Shown here: positions 2 to 19,754 of the stretch, one piece after another
Layout of the letters: the number at the start of each line of letters is the position of its first letter
Numbering within the stretch: position 1 is the stretch's first letter
Source of the DNA: Candidatus Helarchaeota archaeon
GTDB taxonomy: Archaea; Asgardarchaeota; Lokiarchaeia; Helarchaeales; RDOG01
Reading direction: 5' to 3'
DNA length: 64,000 bases
NCBI GenBank assembly: GCA_019058315.1
Contig: JAHPZH010000002.1
Location: 128,001 to 192,000 of the forward strand
Translations under genes and position numbers: made by a program
The notes under the pieces: generated by a model
What the model saw: the letters and a program-made list of their open reading frames with translations, nothing else
Told to the model about the DNA's origin: nothing
Databases searched by the model: none

Positions 2-244
2 ATTCCAACACCAAACAATATAGATTTTGAAACATGGTTAAAAGCATATCCTGGATATGGGGTAATATTTACAGCCAAGAAGGAAAATGTAGAGAAAATT
101 AAAAAATTATATTCTGATACTTCAATAATAACAAAGGAAATTGGCATAGTAGATAATTCAAAAAAGTTAATTGTTGAAGATGATAATACCAGTAGTGAAC
201 TTTTTGACTTTAGAAAAATTAATTTATCGGGTAAAAGTCGTTAA
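2..244 (+). CDS. Partial (C-terminus only) AIR-synthase/PurM-like protein, methanogenesis marker 2 / sll0787 family
   Basis: Frame 2 is open from the window edge to TAA 242-244: IPTPNNIDFETWLKAYPGYGVIFTA...KEIGIVDNSKKL...LFDF, which resembles the family's IPxPxxxDxxxWLxxYPgxG motif. Not in the ORF track. Confidence 0.65.
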   Translation: MPTPNNIDFETWLKAYPGYGVIFTAKKENVEKIKKLYSDTSIITKEIGIVDNSKKLIVEDDNTSSELFDFRKINLSGKSR

Positions 245-1176
245 ATAATAGAAAGTCTCAAAGCATTCTCAGGACATCTCTCGACACATTTCAGACAATA
301 AGTACATTTTCTATGTTGAATTTTATCGTAGGGTAATTTTAAAATAGGAATATTCATAGGACAAACTTCTACACAGATTTTACAATCTTCTTTTAAACAT
401 CTAATCGGGTCTCTTCTCAAACCAAACCAAGAATATTCATTAAAATGTCCTAAAATAATACCCGTAGGACATATATATCGGCAAAAAACTAGAGGAATCC
501 ATATATTCATCATTAAAATTATTAATAGAAAAAAGATTTGTATCCATAAGAAAGCATCATTTGCGAAATATGCCACTATATCTCCTTCATAAACAGGAAA
601 GGATCCATTTATAATTCTCCATGGAATAACCGAGATTAAGGTGACATAAGGATCCAGTTGAGTATAAGTACCTTCACTAAATGGTCCAAGTGGTGAAGCT
701 TGAGGAGATGATAATCGATTGAATCCAACTAATACACAGAGACCCAAAGAGATTAGAATTATTACGTATGGAATGTTAGATAATAAATCCTCAGTATCTT
801 GTACTGGTTTTATTTTATTTTGAGGAAAATAACCTATCATTTCTTGAATAAATCCAAAAGGACAAACCCATGAACAAGTAGATCTTCCAAAGATGAAGCC
901 AATTAAAATAAGTAATCCTAAAATAAGATATGGAATAATTGCATTAGCAATATAATATTCTAGCATATTATAAGAAGCTGAAATGTTTGAGAAAGGTCCA
1001 GAAAAACTTTGTTCGATAGGAAGCACGATACCACTAACGGAAGAAAACAGAAATATCCCATATGTGCCAGTAAATAATCCAATATTTAATAAAATAAAGA
1101 AAAAGATTTGAGAGGCAAGCCTAATAAATCTAAATTTATTTTTTCTCCAAAATGATCCAATTTCTTTTTTTACCAC
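241..1176 (-). CDS. Membrane 4Fe-4S binding protein (NapH/MauN/YccM-like polyferredoxin)
   Basis: Several TM segments, two CxxxCP motifs (CSWVCPFG, CRYICPTG) and C-terminal ferredoxin motifs (CKICVEVCP, CTYCLKCVERCP). Confidence 0.85.
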   Translation of the reverse strand: MVKKEIGSFWRKNKFRFIRLASQIFFFILLNIGLFTGTYGIFLFSSVSGIVLPIEQSFSGPFSNISASYNMLEYYIANAIIPYLILGLLILIGFIFGRSTCSWVCPFGFIQEMIGYFPQNKIKPVQDTEDLLSNIPYVIILISLGLCVLVGFNRLSSPQASPLGPFSEGTYTQLDPYVTLISVIPWRIINGSFPVYEGDIVAYFANDAFLWIQIFFLLIILMMNIWIPLVFCRYICPTGIILGHFNEYSWFGLRRDPIRCLKEDCKICVEVCPMNIPILKLPYDKIQHRKCTYCLKCVERCPENALRLSII

Positions 1177-1213
1177 TTATATTCCTTCCAATATAAAAAA
1201 TAAAAACAAAAAA

Positions 1214-1354
1214 TTAACGAAAAGTAATAGATCTCGGCCATTTTAAAAAGAATACTAATACTTCGTATTCCAAATCTTGGTCTAGAGTATATCCGAATGC
1301 TATTAAGCAGAGAGCTATAAGTAGAAGACTCAGCGAAATAATAATTTTTCTCAA
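1214..1354 (-). CDS. Small single-TM protein (46 aa), unannotated
   Basis: TTG start at 1354 preceded by AGGCG (similar SD-like motif before the 4553 gene). Translation MRKIIISLSLLLIALCLIAFGYTLDQDLEYEVLVFFLKWPRSITFR*. Co-oriented just upstream of the polyferredoxin. Confidence 0.55.
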   Translation of the reverse strand: MRKIIISLSLLLIALCLIAFGYTLDQDLEYEVLVFFLKWPRSITFR

Positions 1355-1438
1355 GTCATTACGCCTAATTTTTTATTTTTTAAAAGAATCATTATGATAA
1401 TTTTTTATATTTTGCATTTTAATATTTTTATTATAGTA

Positions 1439-1510
1439 TAAAACCCAATGATGAGACTTGGACACCTGAAGATTAAAGATGATGACCCCATGCAGGTCTG
1501 GAGGGTTTTA
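1439..1510 (+). ncRNA. Archaeal C/D-box 2'-O-methylation guide sRNA
   Basis: C box ATGATGA 1448-1454, 11-nt guide, D' CTGA 1466-1469, C' ATGATGA 1479-1485, 12-nt guide, variant D box CTGGA 1498-1502, 8-bp terminal stem TAAAACCC/GGGTTTTA. A GC-richer island in an AT-rich spacer. Confidence 0.8.
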
Positions 1511-1513
1511 AAC

Positions 1514-1879
1514 TTAAAAATCATCGTAGTCCTGCATTTTTTTCAAAATCTTATTCTTAAATTTTAATGATTTTATGGGTTTTACTTTTAAATCTTTATC
1601 AAGTTCTTCTTCTTCTTCTTTAATCTTTTTCTGCTGAAAAGAACTAAGCATACATCTTCCATTTGTAGCCATTTTATATTTTACACAAAAAGAGTATTTA
1701 CACTTATAACCTTCACAAATTTCTCCAGGGGCAAAGTTACAAGCTACAACTAAATCAGACCCTTTTCTGAATCTGCGCCCTAAAGCTTTTTGTTGACATC
1801 TTAAGAATTTACAACTAGGAGTACAGTATTTTATATCTTGGCCTTTACTGTTAGGCACCATTATTTTGCTCCTTTTCAT
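1514..1879 (-). CDS. Cys-rich hypothetical protein (probable metal binding)
   Basis: CTPSCKFLRC...C...CEGYKCKYSFC...C pattern followed by a charged tail. Confidence 0.6.
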   Translation of the reverse strand: MKRSKIMVPNSKGQDIKYCTPSCKFLRCQQKALGRRFRKGSDLVVACNFAPGEICEGYKCKYSFCVKYKMATNGRCMLSSFQQKKIKEEEEELDKDLKVKPIKSLKFKNKILKKMQDYDDF

Positions 1880-2025
1880 TGCCTATATTTTTTTCAATCA
1901 CTTCAATTATATAAAAACTTTTTTAGATTAAAATCTTTGTTCAAAATTGATTTATTAAAAATTTTATTTTGTTAAAATTATTGAGTATATGAAATAAGTT
2001 TCTAAAATCCATTTATTATATTTAT

Positions 2026-2832
2026 TTATAACTTTAATTCTTCTAAAAGTAAGGATAATTTTTCGATTTTTTTATTAATCTCATTTTTTTTATTCTCATA
2101 ACTCTTCTTTGTTAATTCACCTACTTTCAATCTCCCTTCTAAAATCCTTAGTTGCTCTTCTTGTTTCTCAATATCTCTCGTTAATAATTTTTGCCAATTT
2201 TCTTCAAAATAATATTTATCTTGAAGTTTGTCATTGAGTTTTTTTAATTTATCATCATATTCCTTTTTTAATTTCTCATATACATGGGGCTCAATTTCCT
2301 TTAAATGAAATTGGTTCTTTAAATTAGAGATCTGCTTTCTTAGTCTTTTCCTCTTTTCTAACAAGTCTTCTTGTGGTAATGGTTTTTTATCAGCCAATAA
2401 TTCCTTACGTTTTTGTTTTAATTTATCAATAGCTTCTTTCAATTTGGGGATTTCATCTTTGATTTCCTCTAATTCTTGTTCATTTAATTCTGAAAGAAAC
2501 GAATCAATTTTTTCTTTATGTTCTTTTAACTTCTTATCATATTGTTTAATTTTGACACGGATATAATATTGTTCAATTATTTCCTCGGGGATTTTTTCTG
2601 GTTTTTTTTCTTCTTTGGGGGCTACTTCGGGTTTTATTTCTTTTGGTTTTTTTTCTTGTTCAGGTTTTAAAGGAACAGGGGCTTGTTTAGTTTCTGGTTG
2701 GGGTTGGGTAACTTTCTCCTCTGATATCTTAATGGGCTTCTCTTCTTCCTCCTTTATTTTAAATCCACAATAAGGACAATAGTTATCTTCAATACTGATA
2801 GTTTTCTTACAAAATGAACATTTTATTTCCAA
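2026..2832 (-). CDS. Zinc-ribbon + CdvA-like coiled-coil protein
   Basis: N-terminal CSFC/CPYC ribbon, Pro/Glu/Lys linker, and a coiled coil with two (G/K)E(I/L)xxxxYExxKxE helical-hairpin motifs like those of CdvA/SHOCT. Confidence 0.6.
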   Translation of the reverse strand: MEIKCSFCKKTISIEDNYCPYCGFKIKEEEEKPIKISEEKVTQPQPETKQAPVPLKPEQEKKPKEIKPEVAPKEEKKPEKIPEEIIEQYYIRVKIKQYDKKLKEHKEKIDSFLSELNEQELEEIKDEIPKLKEAIDKLKQKRKELLADKKPLPQEDLLEKRKRLRKQISNLKNQFHLKEIEPHVYEKLKKEYDDKLKKLNDKLQDKYYFEENWQKLLTRDIEKQEEQLRILEGRLKVGELTKKSYENKKNEINKKIEKLSLLLEELKL

Positions 2833-3020
2833 ATTATCAGAACCTTCAGAATTTTAGTAGCTAGTCGAAATATTATTCTATAAAAAGTTAAGTAACTAAT
2901 TTTATTTAAATTTATATTTTAAGACATAGCAAATATTTTATCTTAAGATTTACAACATTTTAATTAATAATTGGTAATAATTCTAATTAATTTTCATAAA
3001 TTATAAAATAGGTTGAAAGA

Positions 3021-3419
3021 ATGGCACAATTGACAAAGGAATTAGTTGATCGTTTAAACGAAATATCTCAGAAATTAGATAGTTTTACTAAAGGTTTAGG
3101 AGGCTTAGTGGAAGCCATTAATAAACTTGGAGAAAATACAAATTCAATATTAAGTGAATTGAGTAATAAAATTGGAAGTTATGCAGATATTGTATCTACA
3201 AAGAGTCAAGAAGATTTTGAGGTATCAAAAAGTCAATTAATTTCAATAAATACACAAATTGACAAAATTAGAAAAGGCGTAGGAATGGAGCAGATGTTAA
3301 AGATAAGTGATTCGTTAAGTGGACTTCTAGATACATTAGGGGGAGCAGATTTCGATCCAATGGATTTAAAAAATAAATTATCAGAAATTAAAAATTATAT
3401 AGAATCCAAAAAAGAATAA
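3021..3419 (+). CDS. Short coiled-coil protein, type A1 (paralog of 6485..6841)
   Basis: All-helical heptads; EISQKL matches EISTKL of the 6485 gene. Confidence 0.7.
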   Translation: MAQLTKELVDRLNEISQKLDSFTKGLGGLVEAINKLGENTNSILSELSNKIGSYADIVSTKSQEDFEVSKSQLISINTQIDKIRKGVGMEQMLKISDSLSGLLDTLGGADFDPMDLKNKLSEIKNYIESKKE

Positions 3420-3436
3420 AATATGAGGCAAATTTA

Positions 3437-4111
3437 ATGAGCAATAGTGCGGATAAAGTTTTACCATTTATAACAACTGTTGTAAATGACATTTATGAAA
3501 AAGTGGGAAATCTTTCTGATTCTTTTAATAAACTTAATGAAATAATTGGTAATATAACTAAGAATTTTGAAGATAGTATAAATAAGCTTTCAAAAGATGT
3601 TGATGAAATTCTTGAAGAGACTCGAATGAATCGAGATCTAACATTAGAAGCATTTTCAGATTCAATGAATGCCTTTCTTGCAAAAATAAAAGAAATTCAA
3701 GATGAAAGTAACAAAACTTATGAAGGAAGTGAAATGGGGACAATATTATCCAGACTTGACAGAATTTCAAATAAAATTTTCGATAAATACTGGGATATTC
3801 AAATGTCTTGTACTGTATCAAATCTACACGTATTAGTTGATCTCTTAAAAGGAAACCCTAATATTATCAGAGTTCAAGTTCCAGTTGTTCAACAAGTTCA
3901 ACCAATTACTCCAAGAGTGCAAGCTGCAGCGCCTCTGTCAGCACCAGTACCATCAATAGCACCGCCTCCGACTAAACCAGAGGCCCAACCTGAGGGAAAA
4001 GTTGATGTGTTTGCAAAAAGTCCAAAATTTAAAGGCGGAAGAAAATTAAAAACCCATGAAGATCGCATGGAAGAAATGAAGAAAAAGAAGAAACTGTTTG
4101 GCCGTTATTGA
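3437..4111 (+). CDS. Coiled-coil protein with Pro-rich tail, type B1 (paralog of 6150..6476)
   Basis: DKVLPFITTVVNDIYEKV matches RSLLPFVASSLNDVYSKL; conserved Trp; Pro-rich linker ending KKKKKLFGRY. Confidence 0.75.
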   Translation: MSNSADKVLPFITTVVNDIYEKVGNLSDSFNKLNEIIGNITKNFEDSINKLSKDVDEILEETRMNRDLTLEAFSDSMNAFLAKIKEIQDESNKTYEGSEMGTILSRLDRISNKIFDKYWDIQMSCTVSNLHVLVDLLKGNPNIIRVQVPVVQQVQPITPRVQAAAPLSAPVPSIAPPPTKPEAQPEGKVDVFAKSPKFKGGRKLKTHEDRMEEMKKKKKLFGRY

Positions 4112-4115
4112 ATTT

Positions 4116-4553
4116 TTATCCGAAAAGGTCTGAGGGTTTTAAAAGACTATCATCTTCATCTTTACCAGATGATGGTGCAGGTTCAGTGGGAGTTCCAACT
4201 TGAGGAGGGGGTGGCAATGAGCTTGATTTACTAGGTTGAGCAGATTGTGTTTGGCTTTTTGGAGCTGATTTTACTGTGCTTGTAGATACCATACCCATCA
4301 TTTGTCTAACATCTTGAAGTACGCGATGTAATTCTAAAATTTGTACTCCCTTCTGCAGACTTTCTACCGAATCTTTTATTGTTTCAGTAACATTACCTAA
4401 ATTTCCAGAACCAGCTTTCTCTATGGCTTGATGAATTAAATTCTGATTTTGTATTAACAAATCATTATTTTGTTTAACCATTTGAGATAAATCGTTTACG
4501 CTGCTAACTAATGCTTTTAAAAGCCTTATTATTTCTACACCTAATTGATCCAT
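4116..4553 (-). CDS. Coiled-coil protein with Pro-rich tail, type C1 (paralog of 6865..7431)
   Basis: LQKGVQILEL matches LQKSIQLLSI; acidic patch followed by terminal LLKPSDLFG. Confidence 0.75.
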   Translation of the reverse strand: MDQLGVEIIRLLKALVSSVNDLSQMVKQNNDLLIQNQNLIHQAIEKAGSGNLGNVTETIKDSVESLQKGVQILELHRVLQDVRQMMGMVSTSTVKSAPKSQTQSAQPSKSSSLPPPPQVGTPTEPAPSSGKDEDDSLLKPSDLFG

Positions 4554-4644
4554 TGTATCGCCTCTTAATTATAGACCATTTATTATATTTTTTATAATAA
4601 TACCTTTTATAATCTTGTTTTTTTTCTAATATATTAATAATTTT

Positions 4645-6128
4645 TTAAGGATTAATGTCTTTCCACATTTTTTTAATGAATAATAATCTTTTCATTCTAT
4701 CTTTGTGAGAAACTCCATCAAAAGTTTCATATGTCCAAGCATTTAATTCGGGTGGGCCTAAAGCTATAGGTTTAATTAAATTAAAGTTAAAAATTGGTGA
4801 TGATTTCATTAAACTAAATACACTAACTATTATATTTTCGATATATTCCACATTTTCTTTTAAAAAATTAATTGTTTTTTCAAAATCATCTTCATTTTCG
4901 TTTGGGAAACCTGTCATTATATATAAATAGGTCCTAACGTTTGCATTTGATAATATTTTTAGCAATTTGGAAAAATTATTAATATTTATTTTTTTACCAA
5001 TAATATCCAGAATTTTGGGGCTAGCTGATTCTAATCCAAAAAAACAATGACTCAAACCCCTTTTAATATAATTTAAGATTTGTTTTTCATTAATATTTGA
5101 TATTTCACAATTGCCCCCCCATTTAATTTCTATATTTGAATTATATAACAAATCGAGAGCTTTTCTAAAACCATTAGATAAGTTAAATGCATTATCAACA
5201 ATTTCAAAATTATGAATACCATAATTACTTGTATAATATTTTATCTCTTCAAATATAATTTGAGGGTTTTTTCTTCTGAAATCACCCCAAATTGAATTTT
5301 CATTACAAAAAACACACTTATTTGGACAACCTTTTGCTGTAAGAATATCTAAAGTTTTAAAATTTTCAAGTTTTAGATCTTCTAAAAAATCATATCTAGG
5401 AATAGGTAAATCATTTAAATTCAGTTTATTAGGTGGTTTAGTAAAATGTATTTTATTATTTTTTTTAAATCCGATACCTGGGGAGTTATAAATACTAATT
5501 TTATCTTTAATTTTAGATAATATTTTTAATAATGGAATTTCACCCTCTGGATGATATACTACTAAGTCTATAAATGGTAATTGTAAATAAAGGTTCGCTC
5601 TATAATTTAAAAAAGCCTCAGGTCCACCAAATATAATTAATGAGTCTGGTTTTTCCTCTTTTATTCTCTGAGCAGCATAAATTGAACTGATTGCATTTCC
5701 AGTAGTTACTGAAAATCCATAAATTCTTGATTCAGATTTAATTAATTTCTTAATATACGTCTCTAAAATCTTTTCTGTAACTTTTTTATGTTTTAAAAAT
5801 TGATAAAAGAAAGGTTTGTATAATTTAGAACATACAGAACATAAAGACTGGATTAGATTTTCTCCAATTTTTTCATAGTTAAAAAAAATATGACCCCATA
5901 TTAACCAATTTGCAGCCCCCCAAATTGCAAATTCGGGGATTTTAAAATCATAATAGTTTTTGATATGAAAATCCTGAGAAATTTTTTTTTATAGAAATCT
6001 AGACTAAAATCAAAGCCTGAAACATTAAATCCTTTATTTTTTAAAAAAGTTATAAGACTTACTATTCCAAGAGATGGAATTTGGGTTGTATATGCCGGTA
6101 AAGAGGTTAAAATACAGTCAAACTGCAT
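4645..6128 (-). pseudogene. B12-binding radical SAM enzyme, split by a single-base frameshift (about 494 aa if restored)
   Basis: The 4645..5151 frame stays open upstream to about 5990 and encodes IIFGGPE, EGE and GCPNKCVFC (CxxxCxxC). The N-terminus (PSLGIVSL, ORF 5901..6128) joins it at an A9 run (T9 at 5982-5990 on +) that is one A short. Confidence 0.85.
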
Positions 6129-6149
6129 TTATTCACCAAAAAAATAGTA

Positions 6150-6476
6150 TCAAGACTCAAATTGTTGCACAACATTCAAGATCCGTTTTAAAGCTAGTAA
6201 AAAGTCAACATACCATATTCCTTCATTGATCTGGTCCAAAGTTTGATTGAATAATTTTGTGGTTGATTTGAATTCGTTTGAAATTTGAACTTTTTCCAGA
6301 GTATTGTGCATAACCCGAATTTTACCAATCGCTTCACTAATTTGTTGATTTAATTCTCCTAAAAACTTAGTGAATTCATTTCCAAACAGTTTTAATTGGT
6401 TTGAAAGTTCATCAAGTTTGCTATAAACATCATTTAAAGATGAAGCTACGAATGGTAAAAGGCTTCTATCAGACAA
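6150..6476 (-). CDS. Short coiled-coil protein, type B2
   Basis: Paralog of the N-terminal helical part of 3437..4111 (LPF...ND(I/V)YxK, conserved W); lacks the tail. Confidence 0.7.
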   Translation of the reverse strand: MSDRSLLPFVASSLNDVYSKLDELSNQLKLFGNEFTKFLGELNQQISEAIGKIRVMHNTLEKVQISNEFKSTTKLFNQTLDQINEGIWYVDFLLALKRILNVVQQFES

Positions 6477-6484
6477 ATTTATCT

Positions 6485-6841
6485 TTACTCCATAGAGGTT
6501 TGTTTAGAAACTTTTAATAAAGCTCTTATTAGTTCAGAAACCATATCCGAAACATTTTTTTTATCTAATTCTTGTTTTATAGTAGCAGTTAAAGTTAAAA
6601 GGTTTTGTTTAGCTTCCTCAATTTCAGATAATTTAAAAACTGTTTCAAAGGTTCTGGTTAATCGATCAACATTGACATTTAAACTAGCTATCGCTGATGC
6701 TATGCCATTTTTCACATTTACAAGAGTTTTGGAAAGGTTATTAATGTTATTATTTGTTTGAATTAATTTTGTAGAAATTTCTTCAAACATTTTTTTTATT
6801 TGAACTGCAGTATCTGAAACTTTACCTTCTGATGTAGCCAA
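6485..6841 (-). CDS. Short coiled-coil protein, type A2
   Basis: Helical heptads similar to 3021..3419; 8-bp gap to the next gene. Confidence 0.7.
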   Translation of the reverse strand: MATSEGKVSDTAVQIKKMFEEISTKLIQTNNNINNLSKTLVNVKNGIASAIASLNVNVDRLTRTFETVFKLSEIEEAKQNLLTLTATIKQELDKKNVSDMVSELIRALLKVSKQTSME

Positions 6842-6864
6842 ATATTATACACCTAAGTATCAAA

Positions 6865-7431
6865 TTAACTTCCAAAAAATGTAGATGGCTTAATTAATCC
6901 TTCCTCAGATTCTTCTTCTTTCTCTTTCTTTTCTTTTTTAGCTGTTTTTGTTGGAGGAGGTGAAAGTTGAGCTTCAACTTTTGCAGGAGGAGGTTTTATT
7001 CCAACAACAGGTTTTGCTTCTTTTGGTTCTTTCTTTTGAGACTCCTTCACTGTCATTGGAGTCGGTACGCTTCGCACATTAGTTAAATTCTCGATCCTAC
7101 TTACTAAATTTTGGATTGATAAAAGTTGTATACTTTTTTGAAGCTTCATAATTGTATGATCTAGAGTCTGATCTATTTGATCAAGACTCTGAATCCCTAA
7201 ATCGTCAATTTTTTGAGAAATATTCTTTTCTAAAGATGGGATTTCTTTTTGTGCAATAGTTGAAAGGCTAGTATTTACTATTGATTCAATTTTTCCTATT
7301 TTCTCTGTAAATTCATTAAATAACTTGCTTTGATCTCCTATCTTTTTCTCTATTCGCTGCAGTGCTCTTACAGCATCTTCTAGAATACCTGCCAATACTT
7401 TCATCAATGCACCTGAATCCGGTGTCGCCAT
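6865..7431 (-). CDS. Coiled-coil protein with Pro-rich tail, type C2
   Basis: Helical N-terminal region, PPP-containing linker, acidic patch and terminal LIKPSTFFGS. Confidence 0.75.
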   Translation of the reverse strand: MATPDSGALMKVLAGILEDAVRALQRIEKKIGDQSKLFNEFTEKIGKIESIVNTSLSTIAQKEIPSLEKNISQKIDDLGIQSLDQIDQTLDHTIMKLQKSIQLLSIQNLVSRIENLTNVRSVPTPMTVKESQKKEPKEAKPVVGIKPPPAKVEAQLSPPPTKTAKKEKKEKEEESEEGLIKPSTFFGS

Positions 7432-7590
7432 CTTGATTCACTAAATTTATTTTATACAAATTTTAATTAATTTATTAAATAGTCTTGGCAAAAAAATACA
7501 ATTTTAATTCAACAATTTATTAAATTTTTCATATTATTTATTATTTTGTTATTTTTTTTGGTGTTTTTTTAAATCAAGTATAAATATTAA

Positions 7591-8598
7591 TTATAAGGGT
7601 TTCCCAGAAATCCAAGCTTCACTTAACAGAGTTGAGAAAAATTCAATATGTTTTGGATTGTTTGACATCATACCCATAGGTCCTGGTGTTTTATCAGAAT
7701 GAGCAGCCAAGATAATTTCTTCTCTATCATGTTCTAGCCCCCATCTATCTTGTTTATCAAAATTTCGAAAAGTTATATTTGGAAATCCAGAAAATGTATC
7801 CATAATCTCTTTATGGTTTTCAATATTAAGATCTATAAATGTAGCAATCCGAATATTGATTTTTTTATTAAGATTTTGTAGTTCAATTTGTTCAATATCT
7901 TCAATTGTAGGTGTACATATTAATAATCTAATTTTTACATTATCTAACATATTATTCATTATACTAATAATATTCTCTTTCCCTTGAATCAAGCCCGTTT
8001 TTTGTTCTTTAATATTTTGATACTCCACATTTAATTTTTCAAAATCATTCTCAAGATCAGATATCGTTTTCTTTAATTCATTTATTTTTTCTTGTTTCCC
8101 AGTAATTTCCTTTGTTTTTTCTTTAGTATCATTTTTTAAATCTTCAATCTTAGAAACTAGTTTCTCATCAGCTTGTAATGCTGTTTCTAATTTTTTTTCT
8201 TTATCTTCAATCTCTTTGTTTTGTTTTTCGATATTTTCTTTTAAATTTTTAATAACTTTAACTTGACGTGAATTTTGTTCTTCATAATTTTGGATTTTTT
8301 CCTGAACCCCGCCAAATTCACTCTTAAGTTCTTCAAATGTTTTCTGCATATCTTGCTCTTTTTCTAAATAATTTTTTTCTAATTGTTGTATCTTTAATTC
8401 ATGTTCCTTTTTTAAATCAGCAATTAATTTTTCTTGCATTTGTTGATTTTCGACTAATCTTTTTTCAAGATTTTCGCAAGTTTCTTCTTTTTCCTTAAGA
8501 TTTTCTAGTAGTTCTTTTTCCATAGTAAGTATTATTTGTTCTTGTTCTTCTATACTAACTTGAGCATCAATTTTTTTTTCTATAATTTCATCATTCAT
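7591..8598 (-). CDS. Long coiled coil + C-terminal TrmB/PLD-fold domain (no HKD)
   Basis: Likely start ATG 8598 after GGAGA (track start 8652 overlaps the upstream gene). About 200 aa coiled coil; C-terminal domain aligns by eye with that of 29313..32459 (xP..D...R...D.EE(I/V)(I/L)xA). Confidence 0.7.
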   Translation of the reverse strand: MNDEIIEKKIDAQVSIEEQEQIILTMEKELLENLKEKEETCENLEKRLVENQQMQEKLIADLKKEHELKIQQLEKNYLEKEQDMQKTFEELKSEFGGVQEKIQNYEEQNSRQVKVIKNLKENIEKQNKEIEDKEKKLETALQADEKLVSKIEDLKNDTKEKTKEITGKQEKINELKKTISDLENDFEKLNVEYQNIKEQKTGLIQGKENIISIMNNMLDNVKIRLLICTPTIEDIEQIELQNLNKKINIRIATFIDLNIENHKEIMDTFSGFPNITFRNFDKQDRWGLEHDREEIILAAHSDKTPGPMGMMSNNPKHIEFFSTLLSEAWISGKPL

Positions 8599-8611
8599 AT
8601 AAATCTCTCCC

Positions 8612-10261
8612 TTATTTTGAAAGAGAATCGGACCAGTTTTTTCGAATTTCATTTATATGGATTTCATCTATTAAATTTTTTCTTAATAACTCATTAAAAC
8701 CTCTAGAAATCTTTCTATCAATATCAGGATTAGAAAAAAGATTTTCTTTTGAACAATTAAATTCAAAATTACTTCTTAGTTCCAAATTTATTTCTAAAGC
8801 GTTTTCTAATCGTTCTTGTAACATGACTTTAAATGAACTGTGTAAAAAATCAAAGGGAACCCATCTTTCTGATGTATTAAATTGGTTTGGGAGGAGGGAT
8901 GGTGGAGAAACGATAATTTTTTCATCACCATCGATTGTTTCAATCTCTGAAATATATAAAGGAATCCAAACTTTATTAATTGGCATAACTATTCCAAGGG
9001 AATTTCCTGAAACCGACCAAGATCCTAAATAACTCTTTTCATTTTCACAGACTTTTATAATTTTATCGATTTTTTCAAGAAGTATTTGAGCTTTATTATC
9101 AATTCTTTCCTTAATTTGTGTAAGTTGAGATAATTCTTTCTCTCTTTGTTCTTTAATTTTAGGAATTTTTTTATCCCCTTCTTCAACTAACTTTTGAAAT
9201 TTATTTTCAATATCGGATTCTTGGGTTCTGATTTCTGAAGCAAGTGCATCTATATCTTTTTGACTATTTTCTATTTCAATTTTAGTTTTAGTTATTAGCT
9301 CCTTAAAATTTGGAATATCCTTATCCAAGTTTTTTATTAATTTCAACGCTAAAGATAAGATTTCTTCAGGATCCTTTTCTTCAGCAAAAGAAGTTTTAAT
9401 TACTTGTGAATCTTTTAAAATTTTTTCAAGATTTTGTATAATTAACATAAATTTTTCAAAAATATTTTTTGAAATTGCATTATTCCGTTTTTCTTTCCAT
9501 TCCTGTAATTCATAATATTCATTAGATTTTTTAACTTCATAATCTCCTTTTATATTCTGTAATTCTGAATCAAGTTTGCTTAAAGTATATTTAGTTCTTT
9601 TTTCTTTTTCAGTATATTCTCTATTTATTTCAATTATCCAATCATCTGTAGTTGACGATACTAAGCCTTGAATCTGCTTCCAGCTCGTAATATTATCATC
9701 AACTTTTTTTATTGCACTCTTGAAAGATTCTGCAATATCAATCACGTTATCAGTGGTAAAGGCTTCCTCTAATTTCGCCATATAAGTCGATGGCTGAGTA
9801 TCTGTAAGTTTTATTAAAGTAGTTAATCCTCTTAAAACATCAGGGTCTATCATTCCCTTTATTTGAATCTCCTCTTGACCCTTTTCTTCAACTGTAGCTA
9901 AGACTTCATCTAAAACGTCAGGTAATCTATTTCTATCAGGACTTGCGTCTCTTAATAATCTTCCGATTTTAGCTCTATTTGGTGAACTACTTATTTTAAA
10001 ACTGAACGAAAAATAATCCAAATTATCAATTGCTATGTAATTTTGAGCATCGGCTTGAATTAAAGTGATTGGCCATAAAGCTTTCGAAAAAAAGATATAT
10101 TTTGATTTTAAAAATTCACTTTTTTTTCGTGAATATTCAATTAAAGCAAATTTTGATGCTAGTTCAAGATCAAATGGGAATGGAATAGAATTCTTTTCAT
10201 AAATTATACAAGGAGTAATGGAAAGAGATTCCTTTGCTGGTCCAATATTTTGACTTGCCAA
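8612..10261 (-). CDS. Hypothetical protein: globular N- and C-terminal regions flanking a long coiled coil
   Basis: 549 aa; beta-strand-like segments LWPITLI and VWIPLYI bracket about 250 aa of heptads; no Walker motifs. Confidence 0.6.
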   Translation of the reverse strand: MASQNIGPAKESLSITPCIIYEKNSIPFPFDLELASKFALIEYSRKKSEFLKSKYIFFSKALWPITLIQADAQNYIAIDNLDYFSFSFKISSSPNRAKIGRLLRDASPDRNRLPDVLDEVLATVEEKGQEEIQIKGMIDPDVLRGLTTLIKLTDTQPSTYMAKLEEAFTTDNVIDIAESFKSAIKKVDDNITSWKQIQGLVSSTTDDWIIEINREYTEKEKRTKYTLSKLDSELQNIKGDYEVKKSNEYYELQEWKEKRNNAISKNIFEKFMLIIQNLEKILKDSQVIKTSFAEEKDPEEILSLALKLIKNLDKDIPNFKELITKTKIEIENSQKDIDALASEIRTQESDIENKFQKLVEEGDKKIPKIKEQREKELSQLTQIKERIDNKAQILLEKIDKIIKVCENEKSYLGSWSVSGNSLGIVMPINKVWIPLYISEIETIDGDEKIIVSPPSLLPNQFNTSERWVPFDFLHSSFKVMLQERLENALEINLELRSNFEFNCSKENLFSNPDIDRKISRGFNELLRKNLIDEIHINEIRKNWSDSLSK

Positions 10262-10411
10262 TGAAATTTACCCCATTTTTAAAATTTAGCCATTTAATAT
10301 TAGTATATTAATGATTTTAAATTTAAAGGTAATAAAATAATAATAAATGTTTAAACTTATATTTTTGATTATTCTATTTTTTAAATAATTAAAAACAAAT
10401 GAGGTAATAAT

Positions 10412-12820
10412 GTGATATCTGGAGTTAGAAGGCGTGAGACCGCTGCTGAAGGAGCTAAATTATTTATTACTTCTGAAACATTATGCCAAAGATTAAGAAG
10501 AGAAATAGACAGGAAAAAAATTATTGAAATCACTGGAAAGAAGAGTAAATTTTTAGATTTTCTCTTAGGTTCTGTCACAATTCAATTATTTCATTATGTA
10601 GGTTTAAGAATAGATAAAATCACCTCCCAAACTCAATTATCTACTGAAACTGAGAAAGAATTCGAATTAAGCCAGAAAAAAACCTTATTTTCTGAGTTAA
10701 AAGACTTTTCCAGTGATTTTTTCTTAAAAGAAATTGAAATTTTTGAAAAAGAAGTGTTACTAGAACAAGAGATTATAAAGAATGCTATTAATCAAAGAAA
10801 AGAAAAAATAGATAAGGATGTAATTTTTACTCAAAACTTGAAATTCTTACGGTCTCAGTTAATATCCCTTTTTAGAAATTATCCAAATCAATGTTTTTAT
10901 GATTATCTAGGAAAAATTTTAGGTATTTCAGAAACAACAAGAAAAGAAATTCTCCAAAATGCCGCAGAATTTAAACCTACTCAAATTGAAATTGAAAAAG
11001 AAATGAAAAGGGAATATGAAGATGAATTTATAGAATTAGCCGTTTTTAATAGAATAAAAAAAATAATTAATGATAAATGGGAAATTATGGTTCCAAAACA
11101 ATTAGAAATGCAAAGTGTTATTTTAAAAAGATTAGAATCGGATATAATTAAATTTCTTATTGATAAGATCCCTTTTTCAGAAAAAGCTCTTAATTCCCAC
11201 CTTGAGAGTGGAATATTAAAATTAAAAATAATTGAAATAATAAAAGATTCTTGTAAAAATGATCATTTTTATGAAGAAATAGAATCTTCGATAATAAATT
11301 TACTAAATATAGAACTACACAAGCAAGCTTCAAAAGGTTCGAATTCGTTTTTGGATTTTATGTCAAATTTATTGCAAATATCATTAGATGAAGTTATGAG
11401 ATTCTTGGAAGTTCATGAAATAAAAAATGTTACAAATTTCTGTCAAGCCTTAACTTTAGAAATAGGAGAAATAGAAGAGAAATTAGAATCGAAATTAATA
11501 AGTGATTCTGATCTATTCCGTTTAGGTGATAGAGGACCATTAGTTCAAGCACAAAAAACTTTGGAGAGCTTAAAAGTTGAAGAAAGAGTTCCAGAAACAC
11601 TTTATGAAATGACACTGGAAGATCTATTTTCTGGAAAAACCCCTATATTTGGAAAACTCCTCAATGAAGTTTGTAAAAGAGTTAATATTTCCCCAGAAAC
11701 TCTAAAATCATTAATTGAAAAAGATAAATTGTTAAAACAGATTTTTAAGGATTCAGAGATTAGAGATATTGAACAAATAAGATTATCATTAAAAATGGAT
11801 AATATTTTAAAAGAAATTTCCCGTGAAATCTTTTATACCTTAATAACTAACTTTTTACGCTCGATTTCACGAATAGTCGAACAATATCAAAAAATCAAGA
11901 GGGATAAAGAAATATTTCTAATCGCAATCAACAGAATTTTTGATTTAAAGAGTTCAGAAAACTGGATTAAGGTTAAAGTTGAAGATCTAATAATTAATAA
12001 GATAATGGATAGACAAAAAGAGATCGTAGATCTAGTAGAAAATAAAGACCCATTTTTTATTAATGGATTTATATGGGCAAGATTATCTGATAAAACTATT
12101 AAAAAGGCACTAGAAGAATTGAAAAAAACAAATAGTCCAGTATATGAAGATATAAAACCTCTCTCACTATCCTTTGATAATATCCCTCCTATCTCATATG
12201 CGACTGCTTATGATATGTGTATCAGGATAGAAAAGGGTTTACAAACAAAGCGTTTAGAATCTAAAAAAAGAAAAGCAAAGGAAGAAGTAATGAAAACTGC
12301 TGAGACAAAACAAGTATTTAAGGATGCTGATACTTATGGCTGGTTGGAAAAGCGGATTAATATGTCTCTAATGAGAATCGGGAAAATTCAACCCAGTCAA
12401 CTCTATTGGAAAGAAGAAGATTCCAATAAGTTATCTAAAATTATATTGTTACATACTCAAGTTAAAAGAGGGCAGGAAATTTGTCCTGAATGCGGTGAAA
12501 ATGTAAATTTAGAAAAATGTGATATACATGGTCCATGTATACCAAAAAAAGCTTCATTAATAGATACTTTGGCTAAATTTTATTCCTTTTCTGTAGATAA
12601 ATTAAAAAAAGTCGATTTTAGTTCAGCTACAAATTTTGTTTTACAAACTGCGAGTCCAATTTTAAAAAAGAGACTTGGTCATGAACCAAAAATTGAAGAG
12701 TACGAGAAATTGCTCGAGGGTGAAATCTTAGAATTAGGTAAAGTATTAGGAGAAGATATAGGAAAAAAATTGAACAAGGCTTTATATAAAACTTGGCGTA
12801 AAAAAGAATTAGGGCGTTAA
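10412..12820 (+). CDS. Large helical hypothetical protein with a C-terminal Zn-finger-like insert
   Basis: 802 aa, mostly helical; CPECG...CDIHGPC near the C-terminus. Confidence 0.6.
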   Translation: MISGVRRRETAAEGAKLFITSETLCQRLRREIDRKKIIEITGKKSKFLDFLLGSVTIQLFHYVGLRIDKITSQTQLSTETEKEFELSQKKTLFSELKDFSSDFFLKEIEIFEKEVLLEQEIIKNAINQRKEKIDKDVIFTQNLKFLRSQLISLFRNYPNQCFYDYLGKILGISETTRKEILQNAAEFKPTQIEIEKEMKREYEDEFIELAVFNRIKKIINDKWEIMVPKQLEMQSVILKRLESDIIKFLIDKIPFSEKALNSHLESGILKLKIIEIIKDSCKNDHFYEEIESSIINLLNIELHKQASKGSNSFLDFMSNLLQISLDEVMRFLEVHEIKNVTNFCQALTLEIGEIEEKLESKLISDSDLFRLGDRGPLVQAQKTLESLKVEERVPETLYEMTLEDLFSGKTPIFGKLLNEVCKRVNISPETLKSLIEKDKLLKQIFKDSEIRDIEQIRLSLKMDNILKEISREIFYTLITNFLRSISRIVEQYQKIKRDKEIFLIAINRIFDLKSSENWIKVKVEDLIINKIMDRQKEIVDLVENKDPFFINGFIWARLSDKTIKKALEELKKTNSPVYEDIKPLSLSFDNIPPISYATAYDMCIRIEKGLQTKRLESKKRKAKEEVMKTAETKQVFKDADTYGWLEKRINMSLMRIGKIQPSQLYWKEEDSNKLSKIILLHTQVKRGQEICPECGENVNLEKCDIHGPCIPKKASLIDTLAKFYSFSVDKLKKVDFSSATNFVLQTASPILKKRLGHEPKIEEYEKLLEGEILELGKVLGEDIGKKLNKALYKTWRKKELGR

Positions 12821-12831
12821 CAAATATTCTA

Positions 12832-13452
12832 TTAGGGTTTTTTTAGACTCAAATAATATTTCAAAACAGCGTCCCGAGCTACCTGTTGAAATGATCTTTT
12901 GATATTTTTACCCTGAATTGCAATCGTATCGTAGATCTGGGTCGACATTTCTATTCCGTGAGGATTAACTATAGTTCCTAGTCCTTTTTCCTTTAAATAT
13001 TCTTCAACTTTTGTTTTTGAAATCAAGTTAGGTAGATCAACTTTATTCAGTTGGACCAAAAAAGGGATCTTCTTTCCTAGAGCTCCACTTAAATGACCAA
13101 TCAATTCATCGAGACTCCAAAGATTTTCTTCCGTTTGGTCCTCTTGTGCGTCCCATACGAAGATTACCGCGTCTACGCCATTTAGAATCGTTTTACGCTG
13201 AAATTTATGGCGTTTTTGACCAGCAACTGTATAGACTTGTAGAGAAACGCCTCCAACACCCGCAGTCATACGATCAAAGAATAGGGTTCGCCCAGTGGGA
13301 TCCACTATTGACTGCATCTTACCCTTAGCCATCCCCTCTTTCTCGAACATCCACTTTACGGCTGTTGTTTTTCCCGATAAAGATGCTCCCCAGTACACAA
13401 TTTTGAATACTAACTTACCATCAGAACCTCGACTGGGGCACACAAATTTCAC
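12832..13452 (-). CDS. mglA: MglA-family small GTPase
   Basis: KIVYWGASLSGKTT (G1), RTLFFD (MglA switch I with Arg), TVAGQ (MglA-type G3), NKVD (G4), TIA (G5). Confidence 0.85.
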   Translation of the reverse strand: MKFVCPSRGSDGKLVFKIVYWGASLSGKTTAVKWMFEKEGMAKGKMQSIVDPTGRTLFFDRMTAGVGGVSLQVYTVAGQKRHKFQRKTILNGVDAVIFVWDAQEDQTEENLWSLDELIGHLSGALGKKIPFLVQLNKVDLPNLISKTKVEEYLKEKGLGTIVNPHGIEMSTQIYDTIAIQGKNIKRSFQQVARDAVLKYYLSLKKP

Positions 13453-13631
13453 CTTTTGTTTTGTAGATTGCGTAATTCATTTAGAAAGGGGATAATAAAA
13501 ATTTAATTGTTTAAACTACTTTTTTATTTTTCCTTTTAAAATATTGCGAAGTAATTGATTTTATTAATTTGAATAAATGATATTTTATCTGGATAGAAAT
13601 TAAACCATTAAATATCTCACTATTTTTTTCC

Positions 13632-14720
13632 TTAAAACCCCGCTTGTTCTAGGGGTGGAAGCCAAGCTTTTTTTACTTCTTTCAAAGACTCATAAATTTG
13701 GATAAAATCTTTGGAAATTGGAAGAATCATTTCAAGATCCGCTTTTTTAATTGAAAAATACCCATTTTCCTTTAAAAGCCTCGTAAGATGAAAATGGTTA
13801 TCATGTACAAAAGCCATCATAACTGGAGATTCCATAGCAGCTATAGCTTCTAATTTATTGAGAAGGGAATATCCAATATCATATATTCTAGACTCTAGGT
13901 CAATAAAGAAGTCTGCAAGAACATATGAACTTAGATAATATTTTAATATTAAAGTATAGGATTTTAAGATAGATCCTCCACCAATCAACTGTCGACCTCT
14001 TTTTATTGCTAAATTTATACTCTTATCCCTTTTAGGTCTATTTACTTTAAACCAATGCCAGTAATTTTTATCGTATACATTGCCACCAATGAAATTTTTA
14101 TTATGCTCATTTATTTTTTTAATAAATTCCAATTGTTCTCCTTTTTGAATTTCAAATTGTATATTTTTCGCTCTTTTTCTTCTTTTTGCTTTTAATTTCA
14201 ATAAATAGAATAATGGGAAAAAGGGGAATAGGGGAAAAATTTCCTTTCTAAATTTCAGAGGATTGATAATTTTCATAAAAAGAGAATAATATATTTTATA
14301 AATATAGCCAAGTCTTTTGTAAAGTTTCCTTGCATGCCCTCCTGGATCTGCCATAAGGACTGAACCATCTGCACCATAATTCTTAGTAAACTCTATTGCA
14401 CGTTCCATTAGATTTCTAGCAATTCCTCTTTTTTCTAAAATTGGACATGTAGCCACATCATCAATTCCTCCAAACAAAAATTCTTGATCCCCAAATCTCA
14501 TTTTATGAAAAGTAACAATAACGCTTCCAACTATTATACCATTCTTTTCTGCAATCATAATTCCTTCAGGAATAAACCTTGGAGGTCTTTTTTTATATTT
14601 CCAATCCCAAAATTCTAATGTCCTAGGTTGACAGAATCTTGTTTTACAAAAAGCACTATGGAATAGTTTATCAATTCCTGATTCATCACCATCTTGGAAA
14701 ATTCGGTATTTAATTGGCAT
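13632..14720 (-). CDS. GNAT family N-acetyltransferase (two-domain)
   Basis: IDDVATCPILEKRGIARNLM acetyl-CoA-binding motif and ARKLYKRLGY. Confidence 0.85.
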   Translation of the reverse strand: MPIKYRIFQDGDESGIDKLFHSAFCKTRFCQPRTLEFWDWKYKKRPPRFIPEGIMIAEKNGIIVGSVIVTFHKMRFGDQEFLFGGIDDVATCPILEKRGIARNLMERAIEFTKNYGADGSVLMADPGGHARKLYKRLGYIYKIYYSLFMKIINPLKFRKEIFPLFPFFPLFYLLKLKAKRRKRAKNIQFEIQKGEQLEFIKKINEHNKNFIGGNVYDKNYWHWFKVNRPKRDKSINLAIKRGRQLIGGGSILKSYTLILKYYLSSYVLADFFIDLESRIYDIGYSLLNKLEAIAAMESPVMMAFVHDNHFHLTRLLKENGYFSIKKADLEMILPISKDFIQIYESLKEVKKAWLPPLEQAGF

Positions 14721-14744
14721 TTCGTATCAATGAATAAAAAATAG

Positions 14745-16094
14745 TTAAGTTAAAAGCTCTAACTTTGTCCTATCTTCCAAAACGGCTTTTGTGCAAGCTA
14801 ATGCTGATGTATGGGCTATTTCACCTCCAGTGCCTGGAACACCATAAGAATCACCTGCAAAATAAAGCCCCTCAATTTCACTTTTCACTTTAGGGCGTAA
14901 ATTACGATGTTGAGTAATAAATGGTACTGCCCCATCAACAATTCCTGCACTAGTTCTATGCCAAATAATTTTATTAGAAAAATCATGATACATTTCGTTT
15001 AAAATATTCATAAGATTATCTTTTACTTGTTTAATTTTATCTTTATCGGAGATAACATCTAATTCAGTTGGTTGGAAAATTGTATAAATTTGTTCTCCTT
15101 CTGGCACAATACTTTCGTCCAGATTTGATGCAAAGAAAGACATAGTAAAAGGATCTTTTGTTAAGATAGTTCCATCATGATCCGATATTTTTTCTTTAAG
15201 CCCAAAATCCATGAACACACCAACGGTAGGTATAATGTTTTTAGCCATTTTAATAAAATCTGGTGAAAAATTCGATTCAGAAATTAGATCAAATATTGAT
15301 TTAGAAGGTATTGCCAATATAACAGTATTTGCTTCTATAAATTCTCCACCTAGATTTACACCCACAATTGATTTATTATCAATCTTCACACTATCAACCT
15401 TTGATTTCGTTCTTATTTCTCCATGCTCTTTAATAATTGAAGTTAATTTTTCAATTATTGATTTCCAACCTCCACGAGGATAACAAGTTCCTGATGGTGC
15501 TTTTGATCCAGTTTTAATACCATCAACAAATTCTCCTGATGACAACATTTCAGTTTTTGTTGATACACACATTAGATTTGCTACTACGACAAGAAAATCC
15601 TTAATAGGTTCTGATAATTTACCATGTTTATCTTCAAGCTCTTTAATATAATCAGGTACAGATATATCTAAGTAATCATCAACTTTTAATTTTAAAATAT
15701 CCACTAAAACCGGTCCAAATGTCTTCTTCTCTTCATCATTAAAGATATCGGTCGAAGCTAGACCACGCATAGAGAGTGGAAAATCATGAAATGCGCCATC
15801 TTGGAATAATTTAATATCGCCACAATTAATTATATCTAATTTTTCGCCAAGTTGTTTCTTAAATATCTTATACATTGAACTTTTTGTTGAATATCTTATT
15901 AAATGAATCCCAAAGTCGACAATATAACCTTTTTTGTATTCAATTGAATTAGATCTGCCACCTAGCATGGAAGTTTTTTCTAAAAGTAAAATTTTTTGTC
16001 CATTTTTTGCTAAAATCGCTCCAGTGAGTAATCCTGCTATTCCACCACCAACAATTATGGTATCAAACGTCAAAAAAATAAACCTCTTTAACAC
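14745..16094 (-). CDS. FAD-dependent oxidoreductase, phytoene dehydrogenase-like
   Basis: IVGGGIAG, LLEK...LGGR, VDFGIH, YPRGG and GLYFAGD. Confidence 0.85.
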   Translation of the reverse strand: MLKRFIFLTFDTIIVGGGIAGLLTGAILAKNGQKILLLEKTSMLGGRSNSIEYKKGYIVDFGIHLIRYSTKSSMYKIFKKQLGEKLDIINCGDIKLFQDGAFHDFPLSMRGLASTDIFNDEEKKTFGPVLVDILKLKVDDYLDISVPDYIKELEDKHGKLSEPIKDFLVVVANLMCVSTKTEMLSSGEFVDGIKTGSKAPSGTCYPRGGWKSIIEKLTSIIKEHGEIRTKSKVDSVKIDNKSIVGVNLGGEFIEANTVILAIPSKSIFDLISESNFSPDFIKMAKNIIPTVGVFMDFGLKEKISDHDGTILTKDPFTMSFFASNLDESIVPEGEQIYTIFQPTELDVISDKDKIKQVKDNLMNILNEMYHDFSNKIIWHRTSAGIVDGAVPFITQHRNLRPKVKSEIEGLYFAGDSYGVPGTGGEIAHTSALACTKAVLEDRTKLELLT

Positions 16095-16914: not shown

Positions 16915-16965
16915 TCTAAAAAAAAGAGAAGTCGAATTTCAAACTTAAAAAAATCATTTTTTAAT

Positions 16966-17556: not shown

Positions 17557-17776
17557 AAAGGAATTTCAATCTTAAACTATTTTTTTAGTATAATTTATGT
17601 ACTATTATTTTTAAAAATTTTGAAGTATGCGTTCGATCTCTTTAATGTTAGAAAATTAAATATAAATGTTTATGTATAAAAAGAAAAATCTAAAAGTCAT
17701 AGTTTACTAAATGAAGACATTGATTCGATTGATCATAAATTGTAAATTTTTAGATTATTAAATATGAAAATTAGGT

Positions 17777-19453: not shown

Positions 19454-19457
19454 AATA

Positions 19458-19691
19458 TTAGGTTCCAAAACCAACAAACTTCTTTTCACGTAGTTTCTTA
19501 TGATGTTCGCGTTCTTTTTCTGCATTGACATTACTTAAATGAGAGAATGACTCCTTGGACTTTTCCTCAAGCCCCATCTGTTTAATCTTTTCCCTCTCTT
19601 CTTTAACACGCTGAATCTCCACTTTTTCGTCTTCTTCATTTGTTTCATTTAATTCTTCTTCGCTCAATTGATCAACCCTTAGCTCATTCAA
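19458..19691 (-). CDS. Small charged hypothetical protein
   Basis: 77 aa, E/K-rich, directly downstream of the actin-like gene. Confidence 0.45.
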   Translation of the reverse strand: MNELRVDQLSEEELNETNEEDEKVEIQRVKEEREKIKQMGLEEKSKESFSHLSNVNAEKEREHHKKLREKKFVGFGT

Positions 19692-19754
19692 TTATTTGTT
19701 AATAATGTTAGCATTTTATTCCTTTTAAATAAACATCAATGTAAATATAATATC

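Follow-up and report, generated by a model that had tools for sequence, protein, structure and literature searches.

The stretch of DNA analysed here (hereafter, the window; 64,000 nucleotides, C5:128001–192000) comes from an Asgard archaeal genome of 5.8 Mb in 12 contigs (~28% G+C), whose closest database relatives are metagenome-assembled genomes labelled Candidatus Helarchaeota. Within it we focused on a run of 13 genes at window positions 1514–13452, which encodes six small helical proteins, a B12-binding radical SAM enzyme, an MglA-family small GTPase and several larger proteins, and which has at its centre a six-gene core conserved in all four family-level lineages of the order to which the genome belongs. 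All 12 genes described in an initial annotation of this DNA, which had been made from the sequence alone, were present, and Pfam showed no enzymatic domain in any of the helical proteins, which bears out their description there as non-enzymatic. Pfam and NCBIfam assigned an enzymatic family to the radical SAM enzyme and the GTPase, and to none of the other cluster genes. Contigs from an independent sediment study (~97–98% identical) span the junctions at 8612/8652, 10261/10412 and 12820/12832, and since they thereby bridge the 353-aa/549-aa, 549-aa/802-aa and 802-aa/GTPase gene pairs, the arrangement is not an assembly artefact.

The core lies on the minus strand and begins, in the order of transcription, with the gene for a 549-aa protein (8612–10261). 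It continues with a 353-aa protein that has a coiled coil and a putative C-terminal phospholipase D-like domain (hereafter, CC-PLD; 7591–8652), the annotated start of which overlaps the preceding gene by 41 bp. Three small helical proteins follow, i.e., a 188-aa protein of type e0 with a Pro/Lys/Glu linker (6865–7431), a 118-aa protein of type e3 (6485–6841) and a 108-aa protein of type e1 (6150–6476), and the last gene encodes a class B (B12-binding) radical SAM enzyme in two frames (4645–6128). The three types were each defined by a hidden Markov model (HMM) of their own, which these proteins matched with E values of 5e-54, 6e-39 and 8e-34, respectively. Gaps between the core genes of the window range from −41 to 159 bp.

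To profile the cluster within the order, we used contigs of closer relatives and of six other species, 11 of which entered the cluster counts (G denotes a genome, L a fetched locus or contig, and f a family). These represent four family-level lineages: f1 (G000, G206, L123, and L124), f29 (G201, G202, and G203), f30, and the lineage of L125 and L126. All four retain the core with gene order and orientation unchanged (G206, G201–G204, and L123–L126), with proteins ~30–47% identical to their counterparts in the window. Wherever an order contig continues beyond the 549-aa homolog, the next gene is a CC-PLD ortholog, and e1 and e3 orthologs were found in every order contig covering their positions. 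In L125, eleven co-directional genes run from the 549-aa homolog through a Cys-rich protein, with gaps of −23 to 106 bp.

The surroundings of the core were reshuffled. Flanks differ between genera, and the genes that flank the cluster in G206 and f29 map 95–115 kb away, or to other contigs, in the genome of the window; rearrangements on either side have therefore left the block intact. Internal changes were tolerated as well, including inversion of the first triplet of small-protein genes and insertion of an 802-aa or a 1677-aa HEAT-repeat gene or, in f29, of SPFH/Band7 and NfeD genes. Facultative additions to the core comprise a second e3-e1-e0 triplet and the genes for a Zn-ribbon/coiled-coil protein, a 121-aa Cys-rich protein, the 802-aa protein and MglA, along with the SPFH/Band7 and NfeD genes restricted to f29. 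The SPFH/Band7 gene (E = 1e-35) is located between the radical SAM and e0 genes (L128:2880–3806; L130:6029–6955), and an NfeD gene is next to the first triplet in L128 (543–1184).

Beyond the order, we surveyed ~200 species-level genomes of the phylum per query (201 for most counts). In the other families sampled, the genes orthologous to those for MglA, the Zn-ribbon protein, the small helical proteins and the 549- and 802-aa proteins were separated by tens to hundreds of kb or belonged to different contigs, and in complete or near-complete genomes (e.g., G038, G165, G147, and G006) they were on separate contigs or separated by 45 kb to >1 Mb. Only in f20 were two parts closer, with the small-helical module 8 kb from the 802-aa gene pair. 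HMM scans of ~90 fetched loci confirmed the dispersal, and when 40 loci around 549-aa homologs were searched with the window proteins (tblastn), only the 549-aa homolog itself was recovered. Conservation of the gene neighbourhood across Asgard genomes was one of the checks that the initial annotation had proposed for its view of a common function, with dispersed orthologs named as part of the outcome that would speak against it; the dispersal was indeed found at the level of the phylum, whereas within the order the neighbourhood of the six core genes held.

The order-level pattern is that expected of a selected cluster. We read the locus, with a probability of roughly 0.55, as a real, order-specific and operon-like cluster of apparently scaffold-type, uncharacterised proteins in Helarchaeota-like Asgard archaea, rather than as a phylum-wide system or a CdvA/ESCRT locus. 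Several observations weigh against this. In the Asgard families sampled outside the order, every part of the cluster is dispersed; the conservation of the core is confined to one order and few genomes, and part of it may be inherited synteny. Genes for pyruvate:ferredoxin oxidoreductase (POR), which are unrelated, also stay beside MglA in G206 and f29, and synteny among the closer relatives reaches left to ferredoxin and AIRS genes. MglA is absent from the cluster in f30 and in L125 and L126, where an Oxidored_FMN gene takes its place. In f9, f20, and f22, the e3-e1-e0 module is not accompanied by CC-PLD, the 549-aa protein or the radical SAM enzyme. In the window and its closest relatives the radical SAM gene carries a frameshift, so the enzyme may be inactive there. 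A search for RNA runs containing this DNA returned none.

Some of these points would also fit a set of independent genes that still lie together in a young order owing to too few rearrangements, with a shared function only inside the small-helical triplets. This explanation stays alive because few genomes were available and the POR genes were co-retained beside MglA; the POR, ferredoxin and AIRS genes are likewise syntenic among members of the order, all cluster parts are scattered in other Asgard families, and the genome of the window is otherwise heavily rearranged relative to its class-mates, so any one adjacency may be historical. We nevertheless consider it unlikely, given that in G206 and f29 the breakpoints relative to the genome of the window coincide with the edges of the cluster, that neither the inverted triplet nor the inserted SPFH, 802-aa or 1677-aa genes broke up the core, that its order was kept though its proteins diverged to 30–47% identity, and that its gaps are operon-like, with some genes overlapping.

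The 549-aa protein belongs to a family detected in 101 of the 201 phylum genomes. In its AlphaFold2 model (predicted local distance difference test score, pLDDT, 88.7), an alpha/beta domain at the N-terminus is followed by an antiparallel coiled-coil hairpin, each arm of which is ~120 residues long, and by a C-terminal domain with alpha/beta and helical parts. Fold searches (Foldseek against the PDB, and VIA wide) returned matches to the coiled coil only, which left the head domains effectively outside the test; a feature-based search of the Protein Atlas returned only "hypothetical protein" clusters, and PDB sequence searches with the three large proteins of the locus returned no match. The hairpin matched SMC arms only, and the protein had neither an SMC or AAA match in Pfam or NCBIfam nor a GxxxxGK[ST] motif. 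Short homologs in f29 and f30 lack the hairpin. In f2, a sister family of the same class, the homolog is encoded between a membrane protein gene and GNAT and TPR genes.

Longer orthologs of the 549-aa protein in f9, f13, f17, and f20 (L029, L031, L033–L035, L037, L038, and L043) carry a MON1/Fuz-type longin domain in their first ~150 aa (Fuz_longin_1, PF19036, in six of eight members, best E = 6.6e-8; best PDB match, MON1). The protein of the window and its Helarchaeota-like orthologs have no such domain, and a profile comparison of the N-terminal domain of the window-type proteins with the longin gave an hhalign probability of 1%. Any likeness to the tri-longin RabGEF subunits (MON1, Fuz, and HPS1) thus comes only through these fusions in four other families, and the head domains and coiled-coil hairpin are without counterpart in those subunits.

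For CC-PLD, the initial annotation had assigned a PLD fold, which marginal matches make plausible. The profile of the C-terminal family matched TrmB (2f5t and 3qph) and TrmBL2 in the PDB at marginal E values of 0.0055–0.0062, and PF11495 was matched by 6 of 21 family members (best E = 3.2e-4), the window copy not being among them. No HKD motif (HxKxxxxD) and no conserved His-x-Lys were present in the alignment of the 21 members, in which P34 alone was invariant and N78, D95, and E97 were nearly so; the C-terminus is plausibly a non-catalytic TrmB-type PLD-like domain. The resemblance to TrmB and TrmBL2 is confined to the C-terminal ~135 aa of the window protein and 20 relatives, which weakly match their effector domains. 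Where TrmB has a winged-helix DNA-binding domain, CC-PLD has a ~210-aa coiled coil, so that at most a domain fold is shared; no helix-turn-helix match (PF01978) was obtained for CC-PLD, and that of a 630-aa relative from f13 was weak (E = 0.004). The family has 4–11 paralogs per genome (180 to ~1900 aa), with 11 in the genome of the window, one of which (1047 aa) is encoded within the window itself (~29316–32459). CC-PLD genes near MglA in f2 and f17 were rejected as counterparts of the cluster, as they are different paralogs.

The six small helical proteins represent three mutually related types, with two members of each in the window. Besides the core triplet there is a first triplet, which encodes a 132-aa protein of type e3/e1 (3021–3419, plus strand; e3 HMM, 1e-7; e1 HMM, 1e-5; orthologs in L123 and L125–L128), a 224-aa protein of type e1 with a Pro-rich linker (3437–4111, plus strand; e1 HMM, 1e-52), and a 145-aa protein of type e0 with an acidic-LLKPSDLFG C-terminal tail (4116–4553, minus strand; e0 HMM, 2e-41). 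BLASTP recovered the paralogy of the two e0 proteins (145 and 188 aa; E = 4e-7) and of the two e1 proteins (108 and 224 aa; E = 3e-5), and there were HMM cross-hits besides; the 132- and 118-aa proteins make up the e3 pair. The C-terminal peptides are conserved. The KKKLFG[RK]Y end of the 224-aa protein is kept in five of six order relatives, the LLKPSDLFG tail of the 145-aa protein is near-invariant in six order relatives, and that of the 188-aa protein, L[IL][KR]PS[ST]FFGS (LIKPSTFFGS in the window), is conserved in ten order contigs. The tail of the 145-aa protein is conserved in f9 and f20 too, in the form RL[IV][KR]PSDLF[GR]RGY. Our personal impression is that the e0 tail is loosely reminiscent of FtsZ C-terminal peptides.

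In f9, f20, and f22, the leading gene of the e3-e1-e0 module differs from that of the window; in f9 and f20 the protein it encodes has a marginal Roadblock-like N-terminus (E = 0.049), and the genome of the window holds no clear homolog of it. About 6 kb from the module in f9 are a SepF gene and a gene for a PhoU-domain protein related to e0 (L072:17496–18062 and neighbours), and a PhoU-like gene immediately precedes e0 in f20. A third, partial small-helical pair, made up of an e1-like open reading frame (ORF; E = 1e-12) and a weakly e3-like ORF, was found elsewhere in the genome of the window (C12:21503–22508).

At the outer edge of the cluster, a facultative member encodes a 268-aa protein with an N-terminal Zn ribbon (Zn_ribbon_3, E = 2.5e-5), a Lys/Pro/Glu-rich linker and a coiled coil (2026–2832, minus strand). 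The gene adjoins the cluster in L123, L125, L126, and L128 and does not in G206, and the family, present in 99 of the 201 phylum genomes, is for the most part encoded at a distance from the other cluster parts. Downstream of it lies the gene for a 121-aa Cys-rich basic protein without a Pfam family (1514–1879, minus strand). L123, L125, and L126 each have a homolog at the corresponding place (phmmer E = 6e-52 to 5e-15), and because of this conserved position the cluster probably extends to this gene as its outer member.

CdvA recruits ESCRT-III in archaeal cell division, and the 268-aa protein had been called CdvA-like. The label did not survive comparison with the family model: the protein gave no match to PF18822 at E ≤ 0.1, and the only match in the genome was on contig C11 at 18.9 bits, under the 30-bit cut-off. 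No CdvA, Snf7/ESCRT-III or Vps4 family was detected among the genes of 241–16094, which leaves the suggested link to ESCRT division without a partner gene at the locus. The N-terminal domain of CdvA, the Cdv division protein of TACK archaea, is a PRC-barrel, in place of which the window protein has a Zn ribbon, and what the two have in common is that each is a coiled-coil protein of similar size encoded near helical proteins.

The 802-aa protein (10412–12820, plus strand) is another facultative neighbour. It was confidently predicted to be all-alpha and multi-domain with a C-terminal Zn ribbon (pLDDT 86), and the model had no structural relative (best Foldseek match in the PDB, E = 0.11; VIA wide, Z = 6.4; Atlas, TM ≤ 0.16); the feature-based search of the Protein Atlas returned no cluster for it. 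The family was detected in 89 of 201 phylum genomes, and in all 20 loci inspected (L049–L068; f2, f3, f8, f9, f20, and f27) a 770–914-aa coiled-coil-containing protein is encoded directly upstream. In the genome of the window this pair is split, with the partner on another contig (C9:68201–70402), as it is in G206 (partner on C153). Only two of the four lineages, f1 and that of L125 and L126, have the 802-aa gene within the cluster. Searches of f29 and f30 recovered neither this gene nor that of its partner, a joint absence that fits a functional partnership of the two with each other and not with the cluster. The 802-aa protein most likely works with a partner encoded elsewhere and is a passenger in the cluster, and the two are apparently an uncharacterised obligate Asgard protein pair. 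It had also been put forward as a possible effector of MglA, a role to which no result pointed and which is hard to reconcile with its absence from the f29 and f30 clusters and with an invariant neighbour that is another large protein, not MglA.

The identification of the 206-aa GTPase (12832–13452, minus strand) as MglA stands. MglA chains were its best matches in the PDB (E = 1.8e-24 to 1.6e-22, phmmer), and the next GTPase class, Arl and Rab7, was 18 orders of magnitude weaker (1e-6). As aligned to MglA of Myxococcus xanthus, it has the hallmarks of the GTPase of the MglA-MglB polarity switch known from this species and Thermus thermophilus, i.e., the P-loop GKT, a switch I RTLFFD with the intrinsic Arg, TVAGQ replacing DxxGQ, and NKxD, all four of which are invariant in 18 MglA orthologs. 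It is a single conserved ortholog throughout the phylum (198 of 201 genomes). MglA GTPases control polarity, and Myxococcus MglA acts through coiled-coil and scaffold effectors.

MglA adjoins the cluster in 7 of 11 order contigs, which belong to f1 and f29, and in G201 and G203 it immediately precedes the 549-aa homolog, with which it shares its strand. In the genome of the window, MglA stayed with the cluster, and the POR genes that flank it in G206 and f29 are now 115 kb away. The locus differs from MglA-MglB systems in that no Roadblock/MglB gene adjoins MglA, the nearest of the 23 Roadblock-domain matches from a Pfam search of this genome being ~15 kb off (~28032–28289), and in that the neighbours belong to uncharacterised families. 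In f20, f8, f9, and f14, MglA is flanked by two to three small genes of one cluster (L097:6984–9084 in G038; G075, G006, G128, and G023). The three flanking genes tested, all from G038, matched Roadblock/LC7 (E up to 1.6e-23), one of them also LAMTOR5 and one MAPKK1_Int, and by these profile matches an MglA-MglB-type operon is conserved in the four families. The neighbours of MglA in f2 are the gyrase genes and the gene for a restriction-modification methylase; genes for actin and a CHAT-domain protein follow at a greater distance. The large MglA-adjacent gene of f2 was rejected as a counterpart of the cluster, as it encodes an Eco57I/MmeI-type methylase.

A functional link between MglA and the cluster is plausible from this gene order. 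The initial annotation had gone further, to a GTPase-regulated locus for membrane remodelling, polarity or division, with a CdvA-like recruiter and with the 802-aa or the 549-aa protein as effector or regulator of MglA. What stood of the GTPase-regulated locus is a cluster conserved in the order, with MglA kept beside it in two lineages despite rearrangements; what did not is its generality, MglA being absent in the other two. Additional points in its favour are the position of MglA directly upstream of the 549-aa homolog in f29, the fusion of the 549-aa orthologs of f9, f13, f17, and f20 to a longin, a known small-GTPase platform, the marginal Roadblock-like N-terminus in the leading gene of the f9 and f20 module, and the SPFH and NfeD genes of f29, which hint at a membrane and are the sole such hint for the cluster.

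The opposing evidence is more specific to the proposed roles. In addition to the missing CdvA, Snf7 and Vps4 matches, the 802-aa protein is absent in f29 and f30 and is elsewhere paired with a large protein, never with a GTPase. MglA lies outside the cluster in two of four lineages and elsewhere accompanies Roadblock genes or sits in unrelated contexts, and the 549-aa protein of the window has neither a longin domain nor an N-terminus with profile similarity to one. Proximity to a GTPase gene is also cheap, because HMM scans of six-frame ORFs found 68 small-GTPase-like ORFs in this genome (besides 95 longin-like ORFs and the CC-PLD paralogs), from which we estimate a chance of about 1 in 8 that some GTPase lies beside a given 11-kb locus. 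Prediction of a complex of MglA and the 549-aa protein with GTP and Mg scored 0.00 against a mark of 0.32 and speaks neither way. No tool result points to a role in membrane remodelling, polarity or division. We regard that scheme as improbable, and the functional claim made here is weaker than the one it contained.

The radical SAM gene had been described as an insertion. All relatives of the order have it at this position, and it is therefore a constant member of the cluster. Its long frame matches Radical_SAM (E = 2.7e-10) and holds a CxxxCxxC motif, and intact orthologs (491–511 aa; L125–L130) have B12-binding and Radical_SAM domains, which places the enzyme among the class B (B12-dependent) radical SAM enzymes. 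These domains and the motif are shared with class B C-methyltransferases, such as the maturases of ribosomally synthesised and post-translationally modified peptides (RiPPs) and the MCR glutamine C-methyltransferase, from which it differs in the division of its gene over two frames and in its model scores. In the window, ~49–75 N-terminal codons are followed by a 447-codon open frame that has no start codon over its first ~279 codons, with the change of frame at ~5901–5988. An independent metagenome contig covers this junction without an indel, and L123 and L124, whose 802-aa neighbours are 63% and 88% identical to that of the window, show the same split into a 49-aa and a long ORF. Either programmed frameshifting or a lineage-wide pseudogene would account for this. 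The best NCBIfam models were RiPP maturation C-methyltransferase (TIGR03975), ApyD and MCR glutamine C-methyltransferase, all of them matched far under their cut-offs; scores against the TIGR03975 and ApyD models were 103–138 bits, with cut-offs of 282 and 750 bits, so the enzyme falls outside both families as modelled.

That the enzyme is the functional centre of a RiPP-like protein-modification cluster, with the small proteins as substrates and the coiled-coil proteins as accessories, would suit the constant position of its gene between small-protein genes, the nearly full-length alignment to the RiPP maturation model and the invariant C-terminal peptides of the small proteins, yet is most unlikely in view of scores far under the cut-offs (e.g., 129 versus 282 bits), small proteins that are helical and 108–224 aa long rather than leader-core peptides, no protease, transporter or RiPP recognition element in Pfam scans of the locus, small-protein modules without the enzyme gene in f9, f20, and f22, and a frameshifted gene in the window.

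Returning to the order-specific cluster of scaffold-type proteins, one arrangement of its parts can be sketched. The small helical proteins would form a hetero-oligomeric scaffold. The disordered linker of e0, which ends in the invariant peptide [LIV][LIV][KR]-P-S-x-[LF]-F-G, could dock on an adaptor from the same cluster, the candidate sites being the head of the 549-aa protein and the PLD-like domain of CC-PLD. The radical SAM enzyme, with peptide or protein C-methyltransferases as its nearest relatives, might act on one of these proteins or on a lipid associated with them. For MglA, a role as the switch that controls how the scaffold assembles or where it is placed is possible and on balance doubtful, because two of the four lineages lack the adjacency and the genome contains 68 GTPase-like ORFs. 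The whole would be an undescribed scaffold system of Helarchaeota-like archaea, in which the small helical proteins, perhaps after methylation by the B12 radical SAM enzyme, use their C-terminal peptide to dock on two coiled-coil adaptors and MglA acts as the switch without MglB. It is a speculative combination to which we give little credence. If true, it would give an Asgard small GTPase its first concrete set of effectors.

With the tools used, no characterised counterpart of the core was found. The cluster could be either a variant of the arrangement of a small GTPase next to coiled-coil scaffold proteins or a new core to which MglA is incidental. Small GTPases number in the dozens in Asgard genomes. 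Their genes are rarely in operons with regulators, and their partners are hard to predict from genome layout (PMC10933270). The cluster is one of few cases of an Asgard MglA keeping the same non-enzymatic neighbours across two families, and provides a short list of candidate partners. The core, the 802-aa pair and those relatives of the 549-aa protein that have a fused longin represent widespread and confidently folding Asgard families without a Pfam family, structural relative or known function. In these archaea, to which eukaryotes are more closely related than to any other prokaryotes, they are candidate components of a lineage-specific cell architecture.

Outside the cluster, the window encodes four genes at 16267–21467 that are syntenic in the closest relative (L124) and not in L123. 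These are a PH/GRAM-like and Zn-ribbon protein (16267–16914), a divergent MglA paralog 37% identical to the cluster-adjacent MglA (16966–17556), an HSP90/HATPase-like protein (17777–19453) and a 570-aa actin-family protein (19755–21467), the L124 ortholog of which matches PF00022. An MglA-actin synteny like that of f2 was considered and rejected, as the 570-aa gene is not the best match to the f2 actin. A Roadblock-domain ORF (~28032–28289) and a longin-like ORF (~45121–45756) are also located within the window.

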